A program made the position numbers and the translations under genes. A stretch of 55,235 bases of DNA from Spizellomyces punctatus DAOM BR117 (taxonomy: Eukaryota), in assembly GCA_000182565.2 (NCBI GenBank), contig KQ257465.1, one strand, 5' to 3'. The first letter of the stretch is position 1. Each line of letters begins with the position of its first letter. The notes beneath the pieces were generated by a model. That model was not told the origin of the DNA and searched no databases. It saw nothing but the letters and a program-made list of their open reading frames with translations. Of the stretch, positions 913 to 54,237 are shown piece by piece.

Positions 913-1578
913 TAAATACTGTGACGAGTTGACGAGCATGATTTGATGAATTTGTAGAATATGATTTTTGCAAGCTGCTTTCCTAATATCAATGTACAAT
1001 GAACAAAAGCAAACGACACAAGAGAAATGTGTATCTCCTTTGGGTAATGTTGATAAACGACATTTTTCTGATTCGAGTTCACCAATGACCATAGAAAGAG
1101 ATTCAACAATGATATTGGCCGTCTTTTTGACTCGAAGGGACACTGATAAAGTAACAGCGCTACAAAAATCCCACTCGACCTTCGATAGAGCCTTTAAACA
1201 TATGCAAAAAAGTTTCCAACAAACTCATCCCCCATGCGTTGCGTCTCTTGGACATAAGTTCACCAACCATTATCCTTCTTTTTGACTACAGAGCGAGCCC
1301 GACCGGATAAAGAATAGATGGTTGCACGTAAACCTATCAAGTGCAAGAGCTGCAATGGAGGTTAATGGGTCAACGTCCTAATCTAAATCGAAGGGCAATT
1401 TCCGTTTTATACCAAAAGTCGTCGTGGCGCGGTTATACACGTGATAGAGTATTACGTAAGTACCATCGGGGGGTCAGCGACGATGGGGGAAATCCATTTT
1501 GTGTGCGGATGGAGCGAAAACTCATAACGAACAGCTGGTTCCGCACGCCGTCGACGGCCGTACGCTCAAAAGCCCGCA

Positions 1579-2186
1579 ATGTCAACTTCTTCGACAGCTG
1601 CCAAAAAATCTCCCACTACCACCCCAGTAAAGAAAGCGTCCTCGTTCCAGTCGCTCAAAACCCCTTCCTCGTCCGACTTGAACGCTGATAAGAGTGCTGC
1701 GCTGGGGACGCCTTCCCCAAAAGGGTCCATGAGCAACCTAAAAGGCGTTTCGTCCAAAGTTGGGAGCTTGGAAAATATCAATCATACCCCCAAAGGCGGA
1801 CAAAAAAAGATATTCAACGAAAAGAAAACATATAATGTCACTAGCAAAATTGGGTCGCTTGAGGTAGATTGACGTGAAAAAACAAGATTGGGAGACGGGT
1901 TCTTTGTCATGTCTCCCCCTTTTACAAGCTAAAATATGTTGCTACGGCTTAGAATATCAACCATGTCCCCGCTGGCGGCAACGTAAAGATTACTTCCACT
2001 AAGCTGGACTTTGGCTCCAAAGTGTCCCCGCGCGTTGGAAGCTTGGATAATGTTAATCATGTTCCCGCTGGCGGCAAAGTGAAGATTCACAGTGAGAAGC
2101 TTGCGTTCAAAGAAAAAGCTGCTCCCAAGATTGGCAGTCTTCCAAAGTCGAACAGCCGGAAGAGTCTTAATGGATCGGACAGCTAG
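1579..2186 (+). CDS. Tau/MAP2/MAP4-like microtubule-binding repeat protein, 172 aa, exons 1579-1863 and 1953-2186
   Basis: The GT-AG intron 1864-1952 joins in frame to give the repeats VSSKVGSLENINHTPKGG, VTSKIGSLENINHVPAGG, VSPRVGSLDNVNHVPAGG and a partial AAPKIGSL. These match the tau repeat consensus VxSKxGSxxNIxHxPGGG. Confidence 0.88.
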
Positions 2187-2571
2187 GTAGCGAAAGGATT
2201 CATGTCAAAGTTGGGTCTCGGCTGTTTGTATCTAACGTTTGCCAATTTTGTTTGATTTAGGCTAGTTACGATGCACTCTACACTGCAAAAATGATAGTAA
2301 AAAGACATTAAAGACATTTTGTAAATTCCTTTGTAAAATCATAATACACTTGCGTTCAATTCCCTATTCTAAAATAATGGTTCGTGAACCAAAGTCAACA
2401 CATGGTTATCATGGTATTAAACGCCAACGGGCCGAGCAACCACTCATTGGAAAAGAAAAACATGATGAAATGATTTATTGAACTATATCAAGTCGCTAGT
2501 GATATCGAATCTGCTCTGCACTGACTACCCTGCCTAAAAGCTATCCTGGCGTCGCTATAAGCTATTCTACA

Positions 2572-4413
2572 TTATTTGTGCAAACGGGTGGTATAGTTGG
2601 ACAATGGCGCGATACCAGTCATAAACGTCCCAAGGTGATCTACAAAACAAGCGCAACACCTCAGCATTCTGAATGACAAGAAAAACGGTCTATAGCAATG
2701 CTGCTCACCTGCACCGATTTGCCTGGTGCTCAGCTTGTTAGCTGGTAAGCACCATTTAGGGAGGACAACTTTCTGCCCGGGTGCGCCATAGATCCATCCT
2801 TCACACAATGGCTTCAATGCGGTAACTGCATCACCTTGCTTCTGGAGATCAGTCATGTCTGTTTCCTTTAGATCGTCGCCAATCGTATTGGATGGGACCA
2901 TCAGTCCACCGAAGGGCCCATAGTCTTTTTGGTAGGAGGTCCGCAGGAGACGCTTATCCAGTTGAACATGCTTTACATACGCAGCAGCAGCGCCAGTGAG
3001 ACCTTGCTCGACTAAAGGACGTGCGCTTGATCTGGCAGATTTCGGTGGGGTTGTAGGCGGCGTGACAGTGACACGGGCTTGAATAGTAACAGGAGGGATG
3101 GGAACGGAATCGGGTATGGTCTCTGCGTCGGGTCCACGGTATGTCGCACGATCCTTCACCCCGTGCGATGTACGAGGATTCCATGTCCCAGCTGCCATAG
3201 CCGCCCTCTCTTCCATGATTACCGACTGGGCCTGTTCGATTTCTGTCGATGGAGTGGTGGGCACCGGCCAGATCTGTGGATACGGCTCTGTAGGCTGTTT
3301 TTCGGTGATTCGCTGACTACGAGGGACGGAGACGGATCGTTGGGGAGGAGCAGTAGCCTCCGGTGGTGTAGGCGGGAGATTATGGTGATACACTGGCAAA
3401 TGACTTGGAGCGGGGATAGGTCTGAGCGGATGAAGTTCAGGCCGGCGAGGGTGGTAGTCTATGACAGGCATGACAACATTTGTCCGCGACGATTGTGGTA
3501 CGACGGGAAGTGTCGCTTGATTTACACTTGAGGGTTTAGTTTTACTGGTGCCCATGCCATAGGCTTTCCATGCCTGTTGTTGAGTAATAAATGTTGTGCT
3601 GGGTAGAATAGATCGTTTGTCTTTGCATGTGGATTCTTTCACTGACTTTGAATCTTCCTTGTTAATATTCTCGGTAGCCAGTTCTTTGTGATTTGTGACT
3701 GTCACAAGGCCAGCTGCCGTGGTTGGCAGTTTGGGAAAAAGCCCATCTTTCGAGATTCCCTCGTCTATCAATGTTTGCTGTGTCGGGTTAATCGTCTTCA
3801 GATGGTGCACAGGAACGTTGCTGGGTTGAATATTGGCCGCTGCGAATCCATTCTCATTTTCAGCATTTGCAGATGCTGTCGATTGCTCCTTTTTCTCGAC
3901 GCTTGATTCCTTCCTTGAGCCTCTTCCGCTTCCTTCCCTTTGACCATTCCGTTTGGTATGTCCGCTTTGTACACCCAACTTAGCTCCGCCCATGCCAACC
4001 CACCCACCAACCCCCAGTCCTGGTTTTCTTGACATGACACCGATCTGTCCAGCGGGCTTTCTCCGTTCGCGCTCTTCAACTTTCCTCAGTTCAGGGGGAC
4101 AAGGTGCACAACCTGTCTCGTCCACAAAGCAAAATGCCTCCCGCTTTCCAATAATCCCAGCAGCAAGCACATGCTTCTTTCCAATTGGACGGAACAGGTA
4201 GGGATCTATTTCGCTTCGGTGGTAGCTCTTTTCCCAGGCGAGCTCGTGAGAAATGCCTGGAGGCATGGCCGTTTGACCGGGGATGTGCACGGAACGCTGC
4301 CATGGGTGAATATGAACGTTGGCGTGTAGGTAGCTGCTCATGGTGCGCCTGATAAACTTGGAACTTTGTCTAGCGATTGATGTCGTATATGAGGCAGGTA
4401 GCGAACCATCCAA
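2572..4413 (-). CDS. Hypothetical Pro/Thr-rich, largely disordered protein (~590 aa); true start probably MSSYLHANV at ~4342; likely one in-frame intron near 2640-2710
   Basis: 613-codon ORF. GTGAG donor and TTGTAG acceptor near the 3' end. No recognisable family. Confidence 0.65.
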   Translation of the reverse strand: MDGSLPASYTTSIARQSSKFIRRTMSSYLHANVHIHPWQRSVHIPGQTAMPPGISHELAWEKSYHRSEIDPYLFRPIGKKHVLAAGIIGKREAFCFVDETGCAPCPPELRKVEERERRKPAGQIGVMSRKPGLGVGGWVGMGGAKLGVQSGHTKRNGQREGSGRGSRKESSVEKKEQSTASANAENENGFAAANIQPSNVPVHHLKTINPTQQTLIDEGISKDGLFPKLPTTAAGLVTVTNHKELATENINKEDSKSVKESTCKDKRSILPSTTFITQQQAWKAYGMGTSKTKPSSVNQATLPVVPQSSRTNVVMPVIDYHPRRPELHPLRPIPAPSHLPVYHHNLPPTPPEATAPPQRSVSVPRSQRITEKQPTEPYPQIWPVPTTPSTEIEQAQSVIMEERAAMAAGTWNPRTSHGVKDRATYRGPDAETIPDSVPIPPVTIQARVTVTPPTTPPKSARSSARPLVEQGLTGAAAAYVKHVQLDKRLLRTSYQKDYGPFGGLMVPSNTIGDDLKETDMTDLQKQGDAVTALKPLCEGWIYGAPGQKVVLPKWCLPANKLSTRQIGAGEQHCYRPFFLSFRMLRCCACFVDHLGTFMTGIAPLSNYTTRLHK

Positions 4414-5317
4414 ATCTATCTATGCGCTGTCAGATCTAGCAACCAAAGTTCACAACCCGCCCACGATGATGGAAAAAACAAGGTAAAAAAGAGCCCTAAA
4501 GAAAAACCAACAACCAAGTAGTACGTTTTCGGATCCTCCAGCACTCGACAACACCGTGAAACCAGCAATGGCAACTACAATCCCACTAGAAGCAGACACA
4601 CATCCTGACAATTCCATCCATCCCTCACAACCACATCCAAACGCCTCGATCATGTCCTCATTTCTCCAAAAGCATGATAACAATGGGTTAAAAAAGGCGC
4701 GCGCCCTTGATCGATCGTTATTAACTCATCTATAGCTCTTGGGCGAGATCTTGTTACCCAATTCGACCCTTAAAACGGGTTGCTTTGCATGGTTTTTATT
4801 TTGGCCCACCATATGAGACGAAGAATCTTGGCCGAGGTTTCCCAATAATCAAGTGCATTTCCTGCTAACAGATATTGTGTGGAATCCTTTGCTAAAAACA
4901 GCCCTTCTTGATCACTTGAGCGCTAGAGAATCCAGATGACAATCAAGCATGTCGCATTTTGACAATGTACTATACAATAACAAAAAAAATATACATCTTT
5001 TGTAGGCATGATCTCTTAAATATATTGTCGCAGCCGGGGTTCCTACTCAGCAANNNNNNNNNNNNNNNNNNNNNNNNNNNNNNNNNNNNNNNNNNNNNNN
5101 NNNNNNNNNNNNNNNNNNNNNNNNNNNNNNNNNNNNNNNNNNNNNNNNNNNNNNNNNNNNNNNNNNNNNNNNNNNNNNNNNNNNNNNNNNNNNNNNNNNN
5201 NNNNNNNNNNNNNNNNNNNNNNNNNNNNNNNNNNNNNNNNNNNNNNNNNNNNNNNNNNNNNNNNNNNNNNNNNNNNNNNNNNNNNNNNNNNNNNNNNNNN
5301 NNNNNNNNNNNNNNNNN

Positions 5318-14718: not shown

Positions 14719-17700
14719 ATGTCGTTTCAAGGCTATGGGCAGGGAAGTCAAGGATTTCCTTCACAGCCGGGAGGCGGGTGGGGACAGCCTTCCCAACAGG
14801 GTTTGGGTGCCGGCATGTTCCCTGGACAACCAATGGGATACCAAGCGCCCAATTTCCAGGCAGCGGCAGGGTCAGGCATTGGAACGGAACTAGCTGCACA
14901 AGGTGGGAATTATTCCGTTTGACTGTGGAAAAATAAGGACTACTCGGGAGAACGTGTTTTTGAGGTGCTAAAGGTTGCCTACCAACAGTATCCCTACCAT
15001 TTATCGAGCATTCTGATCTGGCCAACTATGAGAACCTATTCAAGCAAGCGAATCCGTCCTCGACAGGACATATTGCGGGTGAGCTTTCTTACAACGCTTC
15101 ATATGGTGGCACGGCACTCATTCTCCCGCAATATCTCACAGCTCCCGCGGCCCGCAATATCCTGGTGCAATCCGGCCTTCCTAACGAGATTCTAGCTCGC
15201 ATATGGTAAAGCCAGGTTTTCAACGACCATGGCGATAAGGTGCTGACCGCAATTCGTGCAGGTCTCTATCAGCGGTTTCCACAAGTACATCCCTGAATTT
15301 TGCGGAATTTTGTCTTGCAATGCACTTGGCAAAGCTGGGGAGGAATGGCACGATGCCCCCGCCTCAGCTACCTGATACTGTTCGACAGCAATTGATGGCA
15401 TCTACCGCGAACCTAACACGCGCTGCCCAAGGTGCGGCTTCAGGTGGTGGAGGATTGAGCGCACCTCTTGGGAGCTATACGGGGAGCGCGGGAGTCACTA
15501 CCAACTTGACAGGTGGTCATGGAAGTACGGGATACTTGACGCCCACTTCGACTGGGAACGCCTCTTTTTCCGGTGTCCCAAGGAATTCCACAACTGGAAT
15601 GTCGCGTTCTTCCTCGTTCCAAGGCGTTCCAAGTGGAGTAACGGTGATGGATGGCTTTGCTGGTCCGCTGGTTGCGCAGGCGCCCATCCAGTCCCAGTCG
15701 TCACAGGGACAGAGACAAAAATGGGCTGTCGATCCTGCAGAAAAGGCACAATATGATGCCATATTCAAAGTCTGGGATCCGCAGAATTCTGGATTCATAT
15801 CGGGAGACCGAGCACGAAACATTTTTACACAATCGGGGCTGCCTGACGGCGTTCTTGCGCATATATGGTATGTACAAAGGATACTTCCATGGCCGCGCCA
15901 ACCCAAGCATGCACTGAACCATTCTTTTTTCGGCTAGGACACTTGCTGACATACAAAAGAACGGAAAATTAAACGCCGACGAATTTGCTGTTGCGATGCA
16001 TCTTGTGTACCAAAAGCTAAACGGGCGTGATTTGCCGGCAACACTTCCTCCAGAATTGATTCCACCATCCACTCGCGATCTTGATTCGCTCACCAATCTG
16101 GCTAAAACGCAGATTATGAGCGATATCGTGAATAAGAAAACCAATCCTCTACAGCGAAGCCCTTTCGGATCATCATCAAACTTGTTCGGTATTGCGGATC
16201 CTCTGGGGTCTTTTGGATCCACATCTCCAAATCTCAGCGATCGTCGAAAATTGCAAGAACAAAGAGACCAAGAAGAAGCCAAGAGGAAGACCATTGTAGA
16301 GAAGTTGGAAACCAAGAAGCGAGAGTTGGCAGAACTCAGGCAGAAGACTGCTGATACGAATAAAAGTGCAACGCAAATTCAACTGGACATCGACCGGTTG
16401 CATCGCGACGCTAGAGAAGGGCATAGTGACGTCAAGTACACGACGACCACCAAGGAATCACTATTGGAGCAGTTACAGAGTCGATCGGGCTCGGGTAGCC
16501 GAGGGGGTGCTGAGACAATTGACCAAGCCATGAACATGGAGAAGGAGATCCGTAATTTACTGGATGACTGTAGAGCCTTTCATAACAAATATGCTGATCA
16601 AAAAATTCAAAAGCTTCGTGGTGCGAGCGGAGCGCAAAGTGGTAGTGGGACGTCGGTACCGGGTGGAATCTCGACTCTGCTGCCGAATACCGGATCTTCG
16701 GATCCCGTCCAAAGCAAGGCAGCCGCCCTGTTGGCAGCCAGAATGGCAGCCTTGGGTGTCAGCGGACCTTCACCCTCTCCTCTGTCTTCTTCCCCCTCTG
16801 AAAAGTCCTCTAGCAATTCAGGTGCTGTACAAGCCGAAATTGCCAAGGTAGAAGAAGAGAGAAGGAGGAGACTCAAGGAGCTCGACGATGCAAGCGATCG
16901 GGTACGTTCGATAATGGAACAGGTCCGCTCGTCAGCTCCTAGCAATGCGTCATCACTCAATATACCGCGCATCTGGAATCCACCGGTGGAAGAAAAGTTG
17001 AAATTCGAGCAGGGAGTCGGTTTAAAGAGCAAGACAGTGCGGAAGGTCATTGAAGACCTTGACAGACAGGGTGGCTATGCAACATCAACATCATCATGGG
17101 CATCGAGTAATACGCAACCTTTATCCGCACCGAGAGATTCGGATGCCCCTGCTCGGAAGCCCTCTCTTTCTAGCAGTGCTATTTCGACGTCCTTCCCCAG
17201 CGTACCATCCGTGCCACGTGCAGGCGTTCCAGACCGAAAAACTGACTCGACACCAACTAGCGCTCTCAAGTCTCCAGATCCTTGGACACCTGCTCCACCG
17301 GTCCCAGCGAGAGAACCCCCTGCGCTAAGCTTTCTTTCGAACCTGAGTTCCTCGTCAGCACCATTGAATGGTGGCAATCATTCACCGGTTGCAGGTCCTT
17401 CGCTGCCATCGCCCACCTCGGCAGCAGTCAATGATGTAGTGGCGCAGGCAGAAGCTGCCATCCGTGCTGCCAAAGAGCGACAGGCAAAACGACTAGCTGG
17501 TGCGGGAACACCAACAACTCCTGGTACACCTACAGGAGCAGGAAGTGGGAATCCATTTGGTGCAAGCAGTACTTCTGCTGGAACTATCCCCGCGACAACG
17601 ACTGGCAGTGAATCTACCGCATTCAACGCGTTTTCAAACACGTCATTTGGCGCGCCAAAGCCGGCAGAGGAGGACGATGAAGTGAGCAAGGCTATGCAAC

Positions 17701-20700
17701 GCTTGCGCGAACAGGAACAGCAGCTGCTTGGGGAGAATTTTCGTTTGGGGGCAGGTAACGTCGGTGCGTCCGTTCCTGCCCCTACCGTGAATAACCGTAG
17801 TCAGGAAAACCATCCGTCGACGGTTACACAAGGCGTACTTGCCGCTATGGAGAAAATCCGGCAACGAGAAAAGGAGGTCTTGGCTGAGCAACAGCGGATC
17901 ATGCAAGAAGACCGGGAGCGAAAGGAGAAACTGCCGGCTCCTCGCAAGTCCATTAGTGGCACATCGGCTCAGATGCCGGATCGATCAGTATCATCTGGAT
18001 CCGGGAGTAGTTTTCCTCGTTCTCCATTGGGTATATCAAAGGACGCTTTCCAATCGGCGCCCTCGAAAAAGGAGCAAGGAATTACTCCGCCTTCAAATGC
18101 AGGAAACGATCAAAGCGAGCCTAGGACGCTGAGCCCCCCCCTCGCACCAGCAATAAGTGTCCAAGAGCCCCCAGAACAGGACGGGTCCCTGCCTAAAGTC
18201 GGTGGTCCGCCTCCACCTCCACCACCTCCTCCACCGGGTGAAGTAAAGCCGGTTAAAAAGTATGTTCGGGGCACTGCGTCTCCAACAAGTTCTGGGGAGT
18301 CAACGCCCAAACGAAAGCCCACACTTGCAGACGTAGGTGCTCGTGTACCAGCCTTATTCGCAGCAGGTGCCGCTCCAGTTCAGAGTATTGGTAAAGTGTC
18401 GGATCGGATCAAGAATCTCCAAGGTGGAATGGCACACATCTTTGGTGCACCCGTCGCCATTGGTCAGCAAGAAGATACCCTCGAGCATAGTTCTCACCTG
18501 TCCCCTACCCAAGCAGAAGGGACTAGCAGTGGACTGGAAAGCGACTGGGAGGTGGTTAGCAAGGAAGATACAAAGAATCACGAACAACTGTCAAAGGATC
18601 CTACTTTGAACGTGGGCTTTACCACGAAGGGAGGGTTTCTTGATATCGGTGCGTCGGGAGCTTTAGGTCGCGCTGTGAGTATAGGGGATGTGTTTTCCGA
18701 CAAGTTTGCCTCCAGCCCTCTTCACCCTGATCCAGGTATGCGCTTTTGGATCCGATTGACGCATTTGCACTCTTTAACCTGTACTTTGATGTTGACTTCT
18801 AGTCGTCATCAGCCCCATTACAATTACGCCAGCTGACGCTGGATCCATTTTGTACAAAGCACGAGCAGCCTATGCGTATGAAGGAGGAGCCGATGATCTT
18901 CGATTGGATGTTGGGGACGTGGTTCAGGTGGAACAAGAGCAAGGAGAGTGGCTCTACGGCCGTGTAGATGGGAGAGCCGGGTGGTTCCCAAAGACCTATG
19001 TAGATGTTATTGCTGAGGATAGTGTTGTGGATACAGGTAAATCTAGACGTTAAATGAAAAATGTCCTAAGTGGTGTTAAATTCTGGCACCTTTTTCCACA
19101 GCTCGTGCACCTACTCCTGCGCTCTTGTCCTCGCGTTTCATTTCACGTGGAACAGCTCTGTGGGATTATACGGCGTTACAATCTGATGAAGTGGATCTTG
19201 TTGCTGGTGAAACTGTTGGCATTTTGGAAAAGCCCGAACAAGAATGGTGGAAGGTGGAAAACAGTCGTGGAGAGGCTGGCCTTGTACCGTCCAACTACTT
19301 GCAAGAAGCTCCGGACGAGGATGGGATACAGCTGGACGATACCAGTACAGCGCCAGCAGGCGCTAGCGGTGGAACCGCAAGAAGTTCGGCAACAGAACTT
19401 TTCGGGAAACCAATCGAAAGTCGTGCATCGTCCGTCAATAGTTCATTTTACGAGTCCGCTAGCGATGCTGGTGCTGGACATGCAACCCCTCCTCTTCCTC
19501 CTAAAAATAAGGTCCATGTTATGCCCCGGTCGAGCTCGTTAAACATCCATTCGCTAGCCGCTTACGGTGAGGATGAGGGTAGCGAAGGCCGGCCTTCTAT
19601 TGGGTTGTCCTCTCGAGAAAGCAACTTTGAGGATGAAGGGGACCGTCACGTCCTTAGAAGCGGGATACCAAAGAGTACTAGTTTTGCGGTGCAACCGTCA
19701 CAGGTGGGTACAAAAGAATTAGAAGATGCAGATGATAATGGAAAACCAACACTTTTCAACAACATCGTCTAGGCATCTACAGCATGGGCCACTAAAGTAG
19801 ACCCCTATCGCCTTCAAACCATTGCTCCAGATGAACGCAAACGTCAGGAAGCCATCTATGAACTGATCGCAACTGAACAGACGTATGTCAGAGACTTGGA
19901 ATTGATTTACCAGGTTTGGGATGCTGAGTGGCTATCGAATCCGCCATGAGTTCTTACGTCTTGTCGTGGTCCTGTCAGACGTTCTATGGACCAATGTCTC
20001 AAATTCTACCCCACGGTGACTTGGAAGCTGTCTTTTCCAACATTGAGGATATCAAGATGGTCAACGCCGTGATTCTATCGGATCTCGAAGCGGTGCAACA
20101 GGAACACGACTTTGTGATCGAAGCCATTGGCGACGTATTCTGTAAGCATGTAAGTGGACCATTCTTTTTTTGTCGACATCCTATACCAGGAGGTTGATCC
20201 AATCTGGACTTTAGGCCGACTCTCTGTCAGTGTACCAGACCTATTGTGGAAACTTTGGCAATGCTCTCAAAGTCCTACAAAAGCAGAGATCTGAGAACCC
20301 CCGGGTGGCCGAGTATTTGAAGGTGAGGAGTGGCTGTCAGTAGGCTAGGCTGAGCATTGGATGCAGGGCTATCCTTTGTGCAACACACCGATATGCACTG
20401 CAAGCTGCGTCGTAAAGACACCGGCATCTTGATGGGAAAACTGTTTATTAGACCTTACTGACAAACATCTTCCTCTGTCGTTCCTCTTTTATATCGGATG
20501 CTGCCATTTCTTGCCAAACTACTGTCATACGTCACTTTTCCTCCGTGTTATGCATCCTTTATCACCCTGCCGTCCCCATCTGAATTCACGTACAAAAAGC
20601 GACAACAAACGTCAAATCCACTCTGTCGGTCGCTGGATTTGTCATCCTTCCTGCTCCAACCAATGCAACGAATAACACGATATTCCCTTTTGTTAAAGCA

Positions 20701-22980: not shown

Positions 22981-24427
22981 GGTTGGGCGGTTGAGCATAG
23001 CATAGCGTTTGGCTCATTGGGTTTAGTATTTCTATTTGAGATTTGGGCAGTTTATATGCTGAATTTGGGGTTGACTGCAAAGGAATGGCGTGCGTGTGGT
23101 TGCCGAATACAAAAGAACGAGGCTGTACTCTTTCGGGCTGTTATAATATAATTATTGATGTTGCAATTCCTGTTTACGGGTTTTCTTTTTTTCGGGTTTA
23201 ACCCCATTTTCGAGCTCTTGACTGGCTTTGGCACGACGGTTTTGCATTGCAATACTCGTTAATGTCTCTTTCCACTTTCCTTTGGACAAAGTAGATTTCA
23301 AATGATTCCAGATCCCATCCTGTAACAGGGTATTATGCCTTTCTGTGACCCGCTGTGCACACACTGCCTTACAAAGCTTTGCTTGAATTTTGCCCGTAGT
23401 ACCCTGTGTCCGGCGCCGAGAATAGGCGAGATGCATGTTAAACCATTTGTTGTATCGATCCAATGCGCACGCCGATATGATACTGGCATAGAGGAGGAGG
23501 GGAGCAAGATAGCAACAGTCGCTCGTAATGCTGCCCAATCCAATGAATATGGAAATTTGGTGCCGAAGCATCAAATACATCTGTTAATCCCATCAGATTT
23601 CGCTTCCTCCAGGCGACGCCCGCGTATATCCAGCTCACTTCTTTTGGTCATATTCGGTCCCTCCAAAATAAAGACCAATGGTTTTCTCGATCACAAACGC
23701 AGCAAAGTCTTGCAACAGAATAAGAATCGGTCTTGTTGCCGCAGGTTCCGTTGCATCCAAAAAGTTCCAAGGCGACGACAGCCGGGTCGTGTGTTGGGTG
23801 GATCTCACCACGGAAAGGAATTAACTAGGGCAGCGTAAAGTGGTTGCGCGCTGAACATGGATACAGTTGACTTAAATTGTCTTTTGGATGTGATGAACGG
23901 TGTTGGTAACTAGTTTACAATTATATTCATGAACTACTGCAACATCGTGCCAAAAATCTTGATAAAAGTTACAGGCTTTCATAAATGTGTTCAGATCACA
24001 TCAAGGTTTCCAAATGACTGATTGGATGATATGGAGTTTGGTACCCAAGACCGTTTATAACGTATGGCACTTGACGCTTTGCGATGTCCTATTCTAATCG
24101 AGTGAAAGCGGCGGGCTGGACAGAGTTTTTGTCGTGCGTTGCTCCGAATGGGTATTGTTGAATCTTTGCAGACTAGTAATTTTACATGCTTTTGCGTTCA
24201 TGAGACCAAGTCACAGATGAGAACCTTCCTCCATGACTGAGAGACGCTAATGGAGCCTTTGCAATCATCAACAAGCTCTATCTGATAGACATGCGTTATC
24301 AAAATCCAGCTTTGTTTATACTTGTATGCTGCGCCTGCGCCAAGTGGCACGGTCCAGTTAGCAAAGCAAACGGGAAATCGCAACGTCCTGCAACCTTCTT
24401 GACCAAAAAACAGTAATTTAATGTAGC

Positions 24428-25683
24428 ATGGGTCGAAAGAAACAAAAAGTCCTTCCCCCCGACTCCCCCCTCTGGGCAAACCAAACCGCATTCCGTGTAG
24501 TTGAGCGGTCATGGAAGCGAAAAGAACATGCACCAGATCTCCTCAAAACTCTTGTAGATCCCAGTCGAAATGCGGCAATAGCCGTTGAAGCGGGTCTGCT
24601 AAAGCCAGTTGCGCTCTCTGACGATCCTCGTCGGATATCACCGCATTTTGGGTTTTCTGTTGAACCTGATACGCCATTACCACCCGCATATGAATTAGTT
24701 AATGTCCCCGGACTCGTCATTATTCCAAACATGTTCTCTCCGTCAGCCCAGCGAACCATTATAAAACAGTGCCTAAAAGAATACACTCGACATCCCAATG
24801 TAACCAACCTTGACACGCACTGGAAACTACCATCAGCAGGGATCTGGAACCTTCACGAACTAGTACGAAAAGGAGAAATAGCATCAGGTGCTGAAGAAAC
24901 GCTTCTCCGCATGCGACATGACGGAACCGTGGAAGGGGCACTCAAAAACGGATACGATAGTGATGTGAATGAAGCTGGGATCAAAATCGATCCCCCAACG
25001 ACCGATACACATCATCTGACACACCTAACACCCCAGGATGCACTGTTGCGGCTTCGATGGACATCCCTGGGGTTTCAATATAATTGGTCAACCAAAGAGT
25101 ATCATCTGGACCGCCGGCCGTCTTTTCCACCACTTATTGGCGAATTGTCCACGGCGATTGTGGAGGCTGTACAGGGTGTGACGGGGTATGAGGCTCGTCA
25201 ATGGAAGGCAGAGGCGGGGATCATCAATTTCTATGGATTGAAAGATGCATTGATGGCACATCAGGATCGGAGTGAGGAAAATGCTGCGGCGCCGCTTGTG
25301 AGCTTTAGGTGAGTGTATGGCGTTTGTCATTAAGATGTGAATAATCTTCTGATTTGAACGATCAGTTTTGGACATTCGTGCATCTTTCTGATTGGTACCG
25401 AATCACGAGATGATATACCTACCTCAGTGGTTTTGAGAAGCGGCGATGTTCTTGTTATGCATGGGCAGTCTCGGCTCGCTTTTCACTGTATGTAATCCTA
25501 GCGGTTGACATGTCGTGCGTGTTCTAATCGACGAGTTGCCCTCTCATAGCCGTCCCGCGAATCCTCGAAAATACCCTTCCCGAGTACCTTTTCCCGCATG
25601 TGGATGAGGCACCTGATTGGGACCTGTTTGCAGAGTACATGGCTGCCTCAAGAATTAATATCAACGTGCGACAGGTGAAATGA
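24428..25683 (+). CDS. ALKBH1: AlkB-family 2OG-Fe(II) dioxygenase, ALKBH1-like, 3 exons
   Basis: LRWTSLGFQYNWSTKEY, AEAGIINFY, LMAHQDRSE (HxD), LRSGDV, H..PR, RININVRQV. Confidence 0.9.
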
Positions 25684-27659: not shown

Positions 27660-28995
27660 ATGCATCTTCTCCAATCTTTAGCCCTAGTCGCCGCATCCCT
27701 TACGCTCGCAATCGCGCAACAATCCACACCTCCCGCGAATATGTACGATACGTTAGCAGCACACGCAAACAACCAAACCACCACCCAGGGTCAAACGTAC
27801 GGAACCTTTTATGGTCTCGCCCAACGTCTCTCCGACATTGGCAATGCTCTTAAACAAGGCAACACGAACCGGACTTTGTTTGCGCCGACTGATGATGCAT
27901 TCAGAAAGTTGAACGATAGCGATCCGACTGGTTACCAGGGTTTGGTGGCCAATACGCAATTGCTCACAAATGTTTTAAAGTGTAAGTTGAGCAAAGAGCC
28001 TTTTAATCTCTATAAAAAGCTTTAGGTTAACCTTAAATAACCTTAAATTCTTAGATCACCTTTTGGCAAAGGATCAGTACTTTGACCCTACGCGTGTCTC
28101 CGCCTACCGCGGATTCTACGGTACCGAACTCGACAAGGGTCAAGTTGTCCGCATCGACGTAATCGACGGCAGGTTGAACAACGGCAGGACCACTTTGACC
28201 AACGGCGTAAACTCATCCAGCACCGTCGGTACCATCCCCGCCTCCAACGGTGTTATTTACGGGATTGATTCGGTCCTCGTTCCTCCTTATAGTTTCAACA
28301 GGACCCTAGCATCCAAGGACTCGACCAGCGCCTTCCAAGCCTTGCTTCAGCAAGCTAACCTTACGACCAAGGCAGATTCGCTACAATACGTCACCATCTT
28401 TGTACCAAACAATGCCGCTATACTGGCACTTCGATCAACTGATGCAAACCTCTCTGCAGCCATTTTGTCAACTACACTCGACCTCCACATTGTTCCCCGC
28501 GTTATCTACTCCACGGAAATTCCACAAACCGATAACAATCCAGTCAATGTCTCGACGGCTGCTCCCGGTTTGAATGTCACTGTTCGTAAAAGCGGAAACG
28601 ACATTTCGGTCTCAGGGCCTGGAAACCGAATCCCAGCCAGGGTTGTCGATGGAGACATTTTGTTTGCGGGCGGTGTCATTCACATTATTGACAGCGTATT
28701 GCTCCCCAATGTCAACGCGAATGGAACGGTCCAAGGTCTCCAAGGTGGTGCAGGCAACCAGCCCGACACTCCTGTCCAGCCTAATTTGCCACAGGACAAC
28801 ACGGCGCAAGGTCCTATTGCTGGTGGTGGGGATGTCAGCAACATTAGGGATGTCAGCAACAGTAATAATTTGAGGGGTGTCGGTGGTAACAGTGGCTCTG
28901 GCTCTGGCTCAAGCTCTAGCAGCGCGGGCAAAGCTGTAGAGTCGTCCTTTGGTGCTGTGGTGGCTATGGCAGTGGCAATGATTGCCCTCTTGTGA
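27660..28995 (+). CDS. Secreted, probably GPI-anchored protein with two fasciclin (FAS1) domains, 2 exons
   Basis: Signal peptide MHLLQSLALVAASLTLAIA; TLFAPTDDAF / NGVIYGIDSVL and TIFVPNNAAI / GGVIHIIDSVL; Ser/Gly stalk; hydrophobic C-terminal tail. Confidence 0.9.
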
Positions 28996-31770: not shown

Positions 31771-34368
31771 TCACTTTTCTTTTACACTAGAGTCGTCAAG
31801 ATTCCGGGTTTCGTGCCTTTTCACAATCACAACTGAACTAGCACTGTCCTCGTCCACCCACTTTTTCAATGTCCCGCCAGCCATGCGCGCAAGAGTAGCG
31901 TATGTATCGTGACCCACCACAATCAAGTCCTTGCGTCCAAATGCGTTACCTCGGGATGTAACGGCTGACAAGGCATCAGTGGTGTTGATGTTCTCGACAG
32001 AGACATTGGTAGGGTTGATGTTGGTGAGTGTGGAAATGGATGTGTCGTTGAGTGTAGATTCAGATGTTGCTTCTCCTGAGGATGATGAGTGGAGAACATC
32101 GATGGCTAGCGTGGCGGATGATAAGTCCTTGTTGTTGTCTCCTTGTACTCGCACTCGGAGAACAGTGACTGAAAGCCCGGGGTGAGAAGCTAATTGTGCG
32201 ACGAAGCGGAGAGCTTCCCTGTCGTCCTCGGTGCCAAAGAATGGAACAAACACGTGCTGGTTTTGTCCTGGGATGGTTGCTGACGGCTCGACAACTTGCG
32301 TCGACGACACGCCAAATCCACGGTCAACAAATACTGCCACAGAGCAAGGTGCGGCTTCAACGACATCCTTCACAAAGTGGTCGTTCATGCAGCTCTGCCT
32401 GGATTCTCCTGGAGGCTGTTGCCATGGAAGAAGGATCAAGTTGATCTTCGAGTCCACACTGGTTTCCACAATGTTGCTTGGAAAGTCTTCGGGTGGGGAG
32501 ACGGTGACGAGGGTATGTACACTCACTCTGTTGAGCTGACCAAAGGTTCGGAACACGTTGATAACCGGATCTGCACGCATTGTCTCGCCTTCGTTGGCAG
32601 CCATCATGTACGTCGATGTACGTTCTGTCAGTCGGATCAACCGAAGGGCAAATACACTCAACGAGGAACGGGTCGTCTGGAACATTTGTGTGACGCTCAT
32701 CATGGCGGGAACAGTAGCCATATTGGGCAGGCACAAAAGAACTTGGATACCGCCTCGCTCGTGGTTCGAGTTGGACTCCCATTCATGCTTCTCAAGGTCG
32801 TGATGCGACCTTGACATTGATAGAGTATCGTGCGACGCAGCGCGACGGATATGCGTGTAGAACTGTGGCGGGTAGATGAAGCTGATAATTGGTGTTGTCA
32901 TGAAGGTGGTTACGAGGGCCATAATGACGAACATGCTGAAAATCTTTTGGTTGATGACCCCAGCTTCGTAACCCAAGTTCAGTACGATAAGCTCCACCAA
33001 ACTGTAAAATGCCGTAGGTTAGCACCACTGTCGCGATTGACATGGTAAGCATATCTACATACCCTTTGGTGTTCATCAAAAAGCCAACAGCAAAAGACTC
33101 CCGCCAGTTGAATCCGGTGAATTTGGCTGCCGCAGTGCAACCAACAACCTTGCCACCACAAGCAACCAGAATTACAAGAATAGTATATCCCCAAGCTTGT
33201 CCATCGCTGAGGGTACCGATGTTTGTGTTGAGGCCAGAGAGGGCAAAGTACTAGAATGTGACTTTATGTTGGCATCTTGCAAGTAACATGGCACAGATAT
33301 CTAAATACGTACCAAAGGAAGCAACAGAATGGTGACAAAGTCTTCAATCTTTTCAGTCAGTTTGATTGCAAATCCATGGTCATGGGGAGTAATCAATCCG
33401 GCAAGGAAACCGCCAAAGATAGCATGCACACCCGCAGCTTGCGTAAACCACGATGATCCAAGAATCACAATAAATGTGGCTAGCACACTCAAATGGGAGA
33501 TATGGTCGTTGTCAGCGCCCCGGCGAACAATATACGCCAAAAGGGGGCGAACAGCTATGACGAGGAAGAGACCCCAGGCTACAACGAGAAGGAAAACGTA
33601 TACAGCTGTAACAGAGTCGCTGGGGTTGTTGATAAGGGCGACTACCAGGATCAAGAGACACCATGCTACACCATCATCGACAGCGGCGGAAGCAAGTGTT
33701 ACTTGGCCAACGGTCGTTTGCAACAGCTTCAGCTCGGTTAGAATACGTGCAAGAACGGGGAAGGCTAGATTCCGTCCAATGGATTAATCAATTGTAAAAA
33801 AAAACCAAAAAACACGAGATCCTTGCTCACCAGTGATTGACATTGCCACACCACAAAACACAAAAAAGGAGTAAAAAGGCACAGTCTTATCCGCGAGCGT
33901 ATCGTAGATGGCTTTACTAACGCCCACACCGACGGCAAACGGAACGGCGATTCCCGAGATGGAAATAAAGGCGGACTGCTTTGCTTTCTTCATGAGGGTC
34001 CGGGGGTCAAGCTCCAGTCCCACAAGGAACAAGAAGAAGATGAGGGCAAAGTTGGCAATAAGACTGAGACGGGGGATGGACGACTAAGGAGGCGGTGGGT
34101 GTTAGTTTCAACTGCAAGGCATCATGTTTTCAACGTAGCTACTTACAGTAGGAAAGACATTTTCCTTGAAAGCTGCGCTCCTCGACAAAACGGAAGGCCC
34201 CAACAGGATACCACCAATAACCTCAGCAATGACGCGCGGTTGCCTCACATATCCCAATAGGATCGCCAGTAACCTCGACAGCACAATGATAATCAGTGCT
34301 TGAAGGAGGAAGAGGGCGACGGGGTCGGTGAGAGGGTTCTTCCCCGAGAGAATACTTCCTTCTGCCAT
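31771..34368 (-). CDS. KHA1: K+/H+ antiporter (CPA2, Kha1/CHX type), multi-exon
   Basis: [67 protein letters not shown]-terminal [12 protein letters not shown]. Confidence 0.93.
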
Positions 34369-52783: not shown

Positions 52784-54237
52784 TAAAGCATATTATGCAT
52801 TTTTATTTATGTAAATAATCACCATTGCAATATGCTCTTGTTCAACTCACACTCGATCCAATATAAACGTGACTGTGCCGCAGGGACCCACCATCCAGCA
52901 TCCGCCAACGCACCGCCCGCACCCTTCAACATCTGGGAACGCTCGTTCTTGCGCAGATCCCCACATTTCAACTCTTACACACACACACAACAAACCAATA
53001 TGGTATGTTATTCACACTTCTTATCGTTCACTACAGGGCTAATGCTTATGATAGGCCACCTTTCCTGCCATCCGTCAACGAAAGCAAGNNNNNNNNNNNN
53101 NNNNNNNNNNNNNNNNNNNNNNNNNNNNNNNNNNNNNNNNNNNNNNNNNNNNNNNNNNNNNNNNNNNNNNNNNNNNNNNNNNNNNNNNNNNNNNNNNNNN
53201 NNNNNNNNNNNNNNNNNNNNNNNNNNNNNNNNNNNNNNNNNNNNNNNNNNNNNNNNNNNNNNNNNNNNNNNNNNNNNNNNNNNNNNNNNNNNNNNNNNNN
53301 NNNNNNNNNNNNNNNNNNNNNNNNNNNNNNNNNNNNNNNNNNNNNNNNNNNNNNNNNNNNNNNNNNNNNNNNNNNNNNNNNNNNNNNNNNNNNNNNNNNN
53401 NNNNNNNNNNNNNNNNNNNNNNNNNNNNNNNNNNNNNNNNNNNNNNNNNNNNNNNNNNNNNNNNNNNNNNNNNNNNNNNNNNNNNNNNNNNNNNNNNNNN
53501 NNNNNNNNNNNNNNNNNNNNNNNNNNNNNNNNNNNNNNNNNNNNNNNNNNNNNNNNNNNNNNNNNNNNNNNNNNNNNNNNNNNNNNNNNNNNNNNNNNNN
53601 NNNNNNNNNNNNNNNNNNNNNNNNNNNNNNNNNNNNNNNNNNNNNNNNNNNNNNNNNNNNNNNNNNNNNNNNNNNNNNNNNNNNNNNNNNNNNNNNNNNN
53701 NNNNNNNNNNNNNNNNNNNNNNNNNNNNNNNNNNNNNNNNNNNNNNNNNNNNNNNNNNNNNNNNNNNNNNNNNNNNNNNNNNNNNNNNNNNNNNNNNNNN
53801 NNNNNNNNNNNNNNNNNNNNNNNNNNNNNNNNNNNNNNNNNNNNNNNNNNNNNNNNNNNNNNNNNNNNNNNNNNNNNNNNNNNNNNNNNNNNNNNNNNNN
53901 NNNNNNNNNNNNNNNNNNNNNNNNNNNNNNNNNNNNNNNNNNNNNNNNNNNNNNNNNNNNNNNNNNNNNNNNNNNNNNNNNNNNNNNNNNNNNNNNNNNN
54001 NNNNNNNNNNNNNNNNNNNNNNNNNNNNNNCCCACTCATCCTCTGCGAAATGTTATATGATGCATCTGTAGATGTCTGCAATGGCATGTACCCTATCGCC
54101 CCCATTATAAGCGATCATACTCTGCGACATGTAATATATTGCATATCCAGATCTATGACCAGGTATGTAGTCTATGCAAACATTATACGATGCATCTGAA
54201 CAAAAAACATTGATGGTGTGATGCGAATGCACTCATA

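Follow-up and report, generated by a model that had tools for sequence, protein, structure and literature searches.

Sequence and transcript evidence for a short tau-type repeat protein in the chytrid fungus Spizellomyces punctatus

The window analysed here is a stretch of 55,235 nucleotides from Spizellomyces punctatus DAOM BR117 (contig KQ257465.1). At positions 1579-2186, on the plus strand, it contains the gene SPPG_07449, whose product is, as judged from its sequence, a genuine tau/MAP2/MAP4-type repeat protein and little more than the microtubule-binding region of that family. A first-pass annotation made from the DNA letters had placed the window in an early-diverging fungus and had proposed that an intron at 1864-1952 is removed to give a product of 172 residues. 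The window is indeed DNA of S. punctatus, and the spliced translation of 1579-2186 is identical to the NCBI protein SPPG_07449 (172/172 residues, letter for letter). In the databases, this protein is named 'uncharacterized protein' by NCBI and 'Microtubule-associated protein' by UniRef, and its PF00418 assignment is already precomputed in a public protein collection.

SPPG_07449 is an expressed gene composed of three exons, all located on the plus strand. The 5' untranslated region covers 1502-1578 on the basis of RNA depth, with an approximate transcript start. An out-of-frame ATG is found at 1509, 70 bases 5' of the start codon and near the onset of RNA coverage. The coding part of exon 1 (1579-1863, 95 codons) encodes residues 1-95; the N-terminal region, basic and Ser/Thr/Pro-rich, takes up residues 1-56 and is followed by repeat 1 and the opening half of repeat 2. 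Intron 1 (1864-1952, 89 nucleotides, GT..AG, phase 0) starts with GTAGAT, ends with CTTAG and lies between codons. Read without splicing, the open reading frame extends from the ATG at 1579 to a stop at 1872 and contains 97 codons. The coding part of exon 2 (1953-2186) encodes residues 96-172 in 77 codons and closes with the stop codon TAG at 2184-2186. Intron 2 (2187-2260, 74 nucleotides, GT..AG) is located in the 3' untranslated region, and the last exon (2261-2366) extends through the remainder of this region to the poly(A) site. Two hexamers, ATTAAA at 2307 and AATACA at 2343, are both positioned upstream of the poly(A) site at 2366.

The SPPG_07449 product has a mass of 17.8 kDa, an isoelectric point of 10.2 and a net charge of +18, with 28 Lys and Arg residues versus 10 Asp and Glu residues. 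It possesses seven S/T-P sites and no Cys, the latter as noted in the first-pass annotation. Residues 1-56 hold 8 Lys and Arg, 2 Asp and Glu, 21 Ser and Thr, and 5 Pro residues together with five S/T-P sites, in line with the earlier description of a basic N-terminus rich in SP/TP sites. Only these 56 residues, basic in character, precede repeat 1, which agrees with the statement that an acidic projection domain is missing. The protein is probably disordered, as its ESM Atlas model has a predicted local distance difference test (pLDDT) score of 0.56 and a predicted template modelling (pTM) score of 0.11. The structure neighbours offered by the ESM Atlas all have template modelling scores below 0.3; such neighbours are meaningless for a disordered protein and were rejected.

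K/R-x-G-S cores occur four times, with first residues 60, 90, 122 and 154, which puts them 30, 32 and 32 residues apart. Repeats 1-3 are complete, whereas the fourth retains only its start, K-I-G-S-L-P, so that the arrangement of three complete repeats and a partial one at a spacing of 30-32 residues is the one described previously. The core of repeat 1 (residues 57-74, V-S-S-K-V-G-S ... P-K-G-G, at 1747-1800) aligns to tau repeat 1. The core of repeat 2 (residues 87-104, at 1837-1979), which is split by intron 1 between Glu95 and Asn96, and that of repeat 3 (residues 119-136, V-S-P-R-V-G-S ... P-A-G-G, at 2022-2075) are both defined by sequence and by alignment to tau. The tail with the partial repeat 4 (residues 144-159, K-L-A-F-K-E ... 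K-I-G-S-L-P, at 2097-2144) corresponds by alignment to the start of the tau pseudo-repeat. The cores of repeats 1-3 read K-V-G-S, K-I-G-S and R-V-G-S, each accompanied by N..H. Their ends, P-K-G-G or P-A-G-G, represent a variant that also occurs in other fungal and in some animal members. The core serines are Ser63, Ser93, Ser125 and Ser157.

The family assignment made in the first-pass annotation, tau/MAP2/MAP4 type, is borne out by two comparisons. The Pfam family PF00418 matches the whole protein in four stretches with 135.7 bits (E 4.4e-40) against a gathering score of 27, and each exon passes this score alone, exon 1 with 56.7 bits and exon 2 with 73. In addition, a phmmer search against all PDB chains found 49 distinct sequences at E<=0.001, all of which are tau, the best being 7pqc_O (E 2.4e-43). 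Microtubule-bound tau constructs are among these matches (6cvn_D, 8.1e-34; 6cvj_D, 9.9e-26). Convergent evolution of the repeats was considered and ruled out, because the sequences are 45-55% identical over about 100 residues and also agree in their period and in the tail outside the repeats.

In the HMMER alignment, residues 11-150 of SPPG_07449 lie opposite the end of the tau proline-rich region and repeats R1-R4, whereas in a second register residues 86-154 lie opposite R3, R4 and the start of the pseudo-repeat. Residues 137-154 are placed opposite the tau segment that follows R4, and the SPPG_07449 tail H-V-P-A-G-G-K-V-K-I-H-S-E-K-L-A-F-K-E-K-A-A-P-K pairs with this segment. The parallel between the linker of SPPG_07449 and that of tau, previously pointed out by eye, is reproduced by the computed HMMER alignment to the PDB tau chains. 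SPPG_07449 and human tau (MAPT) have in common the Pfam repeat PF00418, the K-x-G-S ... N-x-x-H-x-P-x-G-G core with its period of 30-32 residues, the K-L-x-F-(K/R)-E tail after the last repeat, and predicted disorder. The basic S/T-P-rich lead-in of SPPG_07449 also matches that of tau by composition, whereas the sequence alignment in this part is weak. Unlike human tau, SPPG_07449 comprises only 172 residues, without the acidic projection domain and without Cys. The acidic N-terminal projection domain absent from SPPG_07449 is typical of the vertebrate members and is not required by the Pfam definition. Moreover, tau repeats 2 and 3 begin with hydrophobic hexapeptides, whereas SPPG_07449 is more polar at the aligned positions; therefore, tau-like amyloid behaviour is not implied for the fungal protein.

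The available part of a preprint on the cryo-electron microscopy structure of tau on microtubules places a 12-residue repeat core on the protofilament at the tubulin dimer interface (10.1101/267153). According to the same part, Ser258 and Ser262 of tau bond to Glu434 of alpha-tubulin, Lys259 is opposite an acidic patch, a hydrophobic pocket receives Ile260, Asn265 keeps a turn in place and Lys267 faces the acidic tail, and phosphorylation of Ser262 weakens microtubule binding (10.1101/267153). When these six contact or structural positions, as given there, are followed through the HMMER alignment, five of the six are kept in both repeat 1 and repeat 2 of SPPG_07449. Repeat 3 keeps four of them, with Pro at the position of Ser258 and Arg at that of Lys259, and the partial repeat 4 keeps three.

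Transcription and splicing were examined in the raw reads of an RNA-seq run labelled S. punctatus (X5), of which about 6% was sampled. In this sample, 774 reads were placed on window positions 1400-2400, nearly all in one direction. The depth is 0 up to 1501, reaches 2.2 in the bin 1502-1535 and 7.1 in the bin 1536-1569, and then increases sharply in the 3' direction, exon 1 having values of 2-7 and exon 2 values of 18-131. The junction 1863/1953, which skips 89 bases bounded by GT..AG, is spanned by two reads, and 12 further reads are clipped at 1951 with a loose-end consensus that ends in the final bases of exon 1. The same spliced form occurs in one contig of 208 nucleotides from a root metatranscriptome (X1), with 38 bases on its short side. 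The RNA support asked of this junction in the first-pass annotation is therefore provided by both sources. The X1 contig (window 1692-1988) carries a single difference, G>A at 1764, a silent change in the third position of the codon for Gly62. A close relative of S. punctatus expresses the gene in this root sample. The depth inside intron 1 in X5 is 2-5, similar to that in exon 1, and therefore part of the SPPG_07449 RNA is unspliced, with counts too small for stating an unspliced share.

The 3' part of the transcript is covered more deeply. The joint of intron 2 is crossed by 28 X5 reads from 10 start places, and the depth is 0.26 inside the intron versus about 130 beside it. This intron lies directly 3' of the stop codon, and the TAG is kept under every placement of the ambiguous cut. 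An exon junction so close to the stop codon is unusual. In the last exon, the depth is 104-126, and 25 X5 reads with a loose run of A mark the poly(A) end near 2366. Both intron 2 and this poly(A) end are new relative to the first-pass annotation. Two further runs of unspecified type (X3, X4) show the locus unspliced, and no conclusion was drawn from them. The small word shares of X1 and of another root metatranscriptome, X2, were not used to name a habitat, and the X1 contig served only as a second sighting of the spliced form.

Relatives of SPPG_07449 were collected by a phmmer scan of 1.84 billion representative proteins, in which organism names were looked up for part of the matches. The scan yielded 912 matches at E<=0.001, 533 at <=1e-10 and 122 at <=1e-30. 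The best ten consist of five animal proteins (tunicate, brachiopod, sea urchin, whelk and tick), one from the Glomeromycotina fungus Cetraspora pellucida and four without a name. A second set of ten, picked by local BLAST as being nearer to fungal than to animal sequences, contains eight fungal proteins and two without a name. The fungal names in this set are Paraglomus, Rhizophlyctis, Funneliformis (two proteins), Powellomyces (two proteins), Linnemannia, and S. punctatus SPPG_00495 with its orthologue from Spizellomyces 'palustris'. Ten further matches comprise Chytridium lagenaria, Mycotypha africana, three animals and five without a name. A word-indexed search with SPPG_07449 as the query gave 18 proteins at E<=0.001 among 131 candidates, including those of Rhizophlyctis, Geranomyces, Cladochytrium and Batrachochytrium.

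With a profile built from 17 fungal sequences, 2668 of 8000 candidate proteins matched at E<=0.001. The best 120 of these 2668 include 25 fungal names and 14 proteins without an organism name, the rest being from animals. Among these 120 are a Gigaspora margarita protein named 'microtubule-associated protein tau-like' by NCBI, proteins of Rhizophagus clarus, Racocetra, Paraglomus occultum, Funneliformis mosseae, Syncephalastrum, Helicostylum and Mortierella, further Linnemannia proteins, and those of Phlyctochytrium arcticum and Geranomyces michiganensis. Altogether, homologues are present in at least eight other chytrid genera, and named homologues come from four deep fungal lineages, namely Chytridiomycota, Glomeromycotina, Mortierellomycotina and Mucorales. 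No name from Ascomycota, Basidiomycota or non-opisthokonts is found among the matches listed, as a reading of the rows and not a survey.

The nearest relative of SPPG_07449 is a 198-residue protein of Powellomyces hirtus, with 59% identity over 103 columns. Protein searches also found a second S. punctatus paralogue, SPPG_00495, which is encoded outside the window on a 2.24-Mb contig and contains six PF00418 stretches (187 bits) in 288 residues. This paralogue belongs to a second chytrid type, whose 8 rows group in a clade of chytrids only (support 100/99) and whose own conserved C-terminus differs from that of the short type. The members from Glomeromycotina, Mortierellomycotina and Mucorales differ from SPPG_07449 in their length of 399-660 residues and their long C-terminal extensions, whereas the K-L-x-F-K/R-E tail is common to the Glomeromycotina and the short chytrid type. 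Up to eight strict cores are found in other fungal PF00418 members. The MAP2/tau/MAP4-like proteins of the tick Dermacentor silvarum, the snail Bulinus truncatus and the brachiopod Lingula anatina match the SPPG_07449 repeat region locally with 96-113 bits and carry nearly the same tail, including the K-I/V-G-S-L partial fourth core. Unlike SPPG_07449, the animal members are 213 to more than 1800 residues in length, have extended N-terminal regions and contain as many as 13 repeats.

The tail following the repeats is a recurrent element of the family. Of the proteins compared, 12 of the 29 from fungi and 13 of the 20 from animals have a post-repeat motif K-[LVIM]-x-[FY]-[KR]-[DE], positioned 12-30 residues after the last complete core. 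In SPPG_07449 the tail continues with A-A-P-K-I-G-S-L-P, nearly as in the tick, snail and brachiopod proteins. For a shared ancestry of the region as a whole, this non-repeat tail is a better indicator than the tree described below. Local block scores are as high for animals (tick 113, whelk 106 and starfish 106 bits) as for fungi (Rhizophlyctis 116, Rhizophagus 104 and Cetraspora 103 bits), indicating that the repeat region is very conserved.

For the tree, the best match to SPPG_07449 residues 54-160 was taken from 49 named proteins, and at least 80 of the 107 positions were required. The blocks from Funneliformis geosporum, Steinernema, Batrachochytrium and Mortierella hygrophila were too short and were dropped. 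In the maximum-likelihood tree of the remaining 45 repeat blocks (26 fungal and 19 animal), the deep branches are unresolved, and no starred branch forces more than one fungal origin. Holding the fungi together lowers the log-likelihood by 7.1 and is not rejected by the approximately unbiased (AU) test (p 0.377). The data thus fit with vertical descent without demonstrating it. With its deep branches unresolved, the tree is of no use as a guide to a donor or to the order of events, and it was used only together with the AU test.

An origin of the family before the animal-fungal split, as suggested by the first-pass annotation, is the simplest reading of the distribution and the shared tail. 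The homologues in four deep fungal lineages fit with it, whereas the tree does not prove it. The description of SPPG_07449 as a minimal ancestral form does not follow from these data. Given that S. punctatus itself has the longer SPPG_00495 with its six stretches and that fungal members elsewhere have up to eight repeats, the short form may be derived. Because relatives are spread across non-Dikarya fungi, the repeat region and its tail appear to be older than the animals and not tied to neurons or to flagella.

Taken together, these observations make it probable that SPPG_07449 is a tau-type stabiliser of the microtubule lattice, descended from a protein that the common ancestor of fungi and animals already had and that was kept in the non-Dikarya fungi and duplicated in the chytrids. 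Each repeat core would run along a protofilament where two tubulins meet, as solved for tau. Given the tau contact positions kept in the cores, three to four of them are expected to bind successive interfaces; in tandem they would staple successive tubulins together, stabilising cytoplasmic microtubules and promoting their assembly. The basic lead-in is expected to add affinity. Serines in K-x-G-S motifs are sites of MARK/Par-1 kinases, and fungi have Kin1-type relatives of these kinases. Phosphorylation at Ser63, Ser93, Ser125 and Ser157, together with the S/T-P sites, would be expected to weaken the binding and release the protein. We give about even chances to the proposition that the whole tau microtubule-binding region (basic lead-in, at least three repeats and tail) existed in the last ancestor shared by fungi and animals, with SPPG_07449 as a naturally occurring 'repeat-region-only' tau, stabilising microtubules of the cytoplasm and controlled by phosphorylation.

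Several observations weigh against the lattice-stabiliser reading. The P-G-G-G repeat end of tau and the animal proteins is P-K-G-G or P-A-G-G in SPPG_07449, and the position of tau Lys267, as assigned from the available part of the preprint, is Asn in all three full repeats. Unspliced SPPG_07449 RNA would encode only a product of 97 residues with one and a half repeats. The fungi do not form one group in the 45-block tree (6 changes, 0 of 200 bootstrap trees). The absence from Dikarya and non-opisthokonts rests only on the names among the matches listed, and the literature found holds no binding assay, localisation or structure for any fungal member. Some of these points could also be taken for a true family member whose main role in chytrids is other than lattice stabilisation, such as linking microtubules to actin, regulating motors or forming condensates, activities that are reported for animal tau. 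The disordered and highly basic nature of the protein (net charge +18) and the Asn in every full repeat would suit such a role, and actin is raised as another possible partner of the P-G-G-G motif in the part of the preprint that is available (10.1101/267153). However, repeats 1 and 2 retain five of the six contact positions of the core, and the repeat region scores about equally against animals (100-113 bits) and other fungi, which points to the same selective constraint; we therefore consider such a main role unlikely.

A role dedicated to the microtubules of zoospores, flagellar roots or rhizoids, which the first-pass annotation put forward as possible, with the protein kept only where flagella are kept, is quite improbable. 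Many matches come from zoosporic chytrids and no Dikarya names are among the matches listed, both of which favour it. Yet homologues exist in the aflagellate Gigaspora, Cetraspora, Racocetra, Rhizophagus, Funneliformis and Paraglomus as well as in Linnemannia, Mortierella, Mycotypha, Syncephalastrum and Helicostylum, likewise aflagellate, and a Rhizopus homologue is in print, in the accessible part of one paper (PMC4815063). Since aflagellate members of Glomeromycotina, Mortierellomycotina and Mucorales have kept the family, the data do not support a role specific to the flagellum. A foreign gene, acquired through animal contamination of the assembly or through horizontal transfer from animals to fungi, is highly improbable, even though the best free tree mixes fungal and animal rows and the identity to animal repeats reaches 50-53%. 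The locus lies within a 579,104-base contig of the reference assembly, its coding sequence has a guanine plus cytosine fraction of 0.48 versus 0.474 for the window, both introns are short and of the GTAG...TTAG style, and the gene is transcribed in the run labelled S. punctatus. Moreover, homologues occur in independent assemblies of many chytrids (at least eight genera besides Spizellomyces) and of three other fungal lineages, and neither the starred branches of the tree nor the AU test calls for more than one origin. The contamination against which the first-pass annotation had cautioned thus finds no support in the contig, the base composition or the distribution among chytrids.

Tau, MAP2 and MAP4 are usually regarded as proteins of animals, and most work on them concerns neurons and dementia. 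In the accessible part of their paper, Sundermann, Fernandez and Morgan (2016) name the 'fungus Rhizopus delemar' among organisms with proteins that have tau-like microtubule-binding domains in a distinct architecture, and derive the family from a 'nonvertebrate metazoan ancestor' (PMC4815063). Apart from this sentence on Rhizopus delemar, the full-text literature, as far as it is accessible and with supplements outside its scope, contains no study of a tau-type protein from a chytrid or another fungus (PMC4815063). The papers listed as mentioning PF00418 include none on fungi, as far as titles or abstracts tell, and fungal tau is not mentioned in PMC6759874 or PMC13406575. The novelty assumed in the first-pass annotation is therefore lower, in view of the UniRef name, the 'tau-like' NCBI name of the Gigaspora margarita protein and the mention in the accessible part of PMC4815063. 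What SPPG_07449 is can easily be found in databases and has been little noticed in the tau literature.

The value of SPPG_07449 lies in a question made testable rather than in a new kind of molecule. Being small, well conserved and expressed, the protein offers a simple natural construct for the repeat region acting alone. If the proposition of a whole tau region in the last common ancestor is true, the loss of the family in Dikarya would represent a change in fungal microtubule organisation. In addition, S. punctatus is transformable, according to the available part of a published report (PMC7213984), and if the proposition is true, the ancestral cell role of the tau family could therefore be tested in a unicellular organism.

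Elsewhere in the window, an open reading frame of 589 residues on the minus strand (2572-4341) converges on the 3' end of SPPG_07449; no Pfam family matches its product, in which Pro, Ser and Thr are abundant. Pfam matches identify four stop-to-stop frames, with an EH domain (15918-18836, plus strand), a 2OG-Fe(II) oxygenase (24422-25312, plus strand), a fasciclin domain (27991-28995, plus strand) and plant-type cation/H+ antiporter domains (CHX17_2nd, 35 bits; 31771-33018, minus strand), all of which are ordinary eukaryotic neighbours that show no visible connection with SPPG_07449. Runs of N are located at 5054-5317 (264 bases) and 53089-54030 (942 bases). The long open reading frames seen in all six frames at 52.8-54.2 kb are artefacts caused by the latter run.

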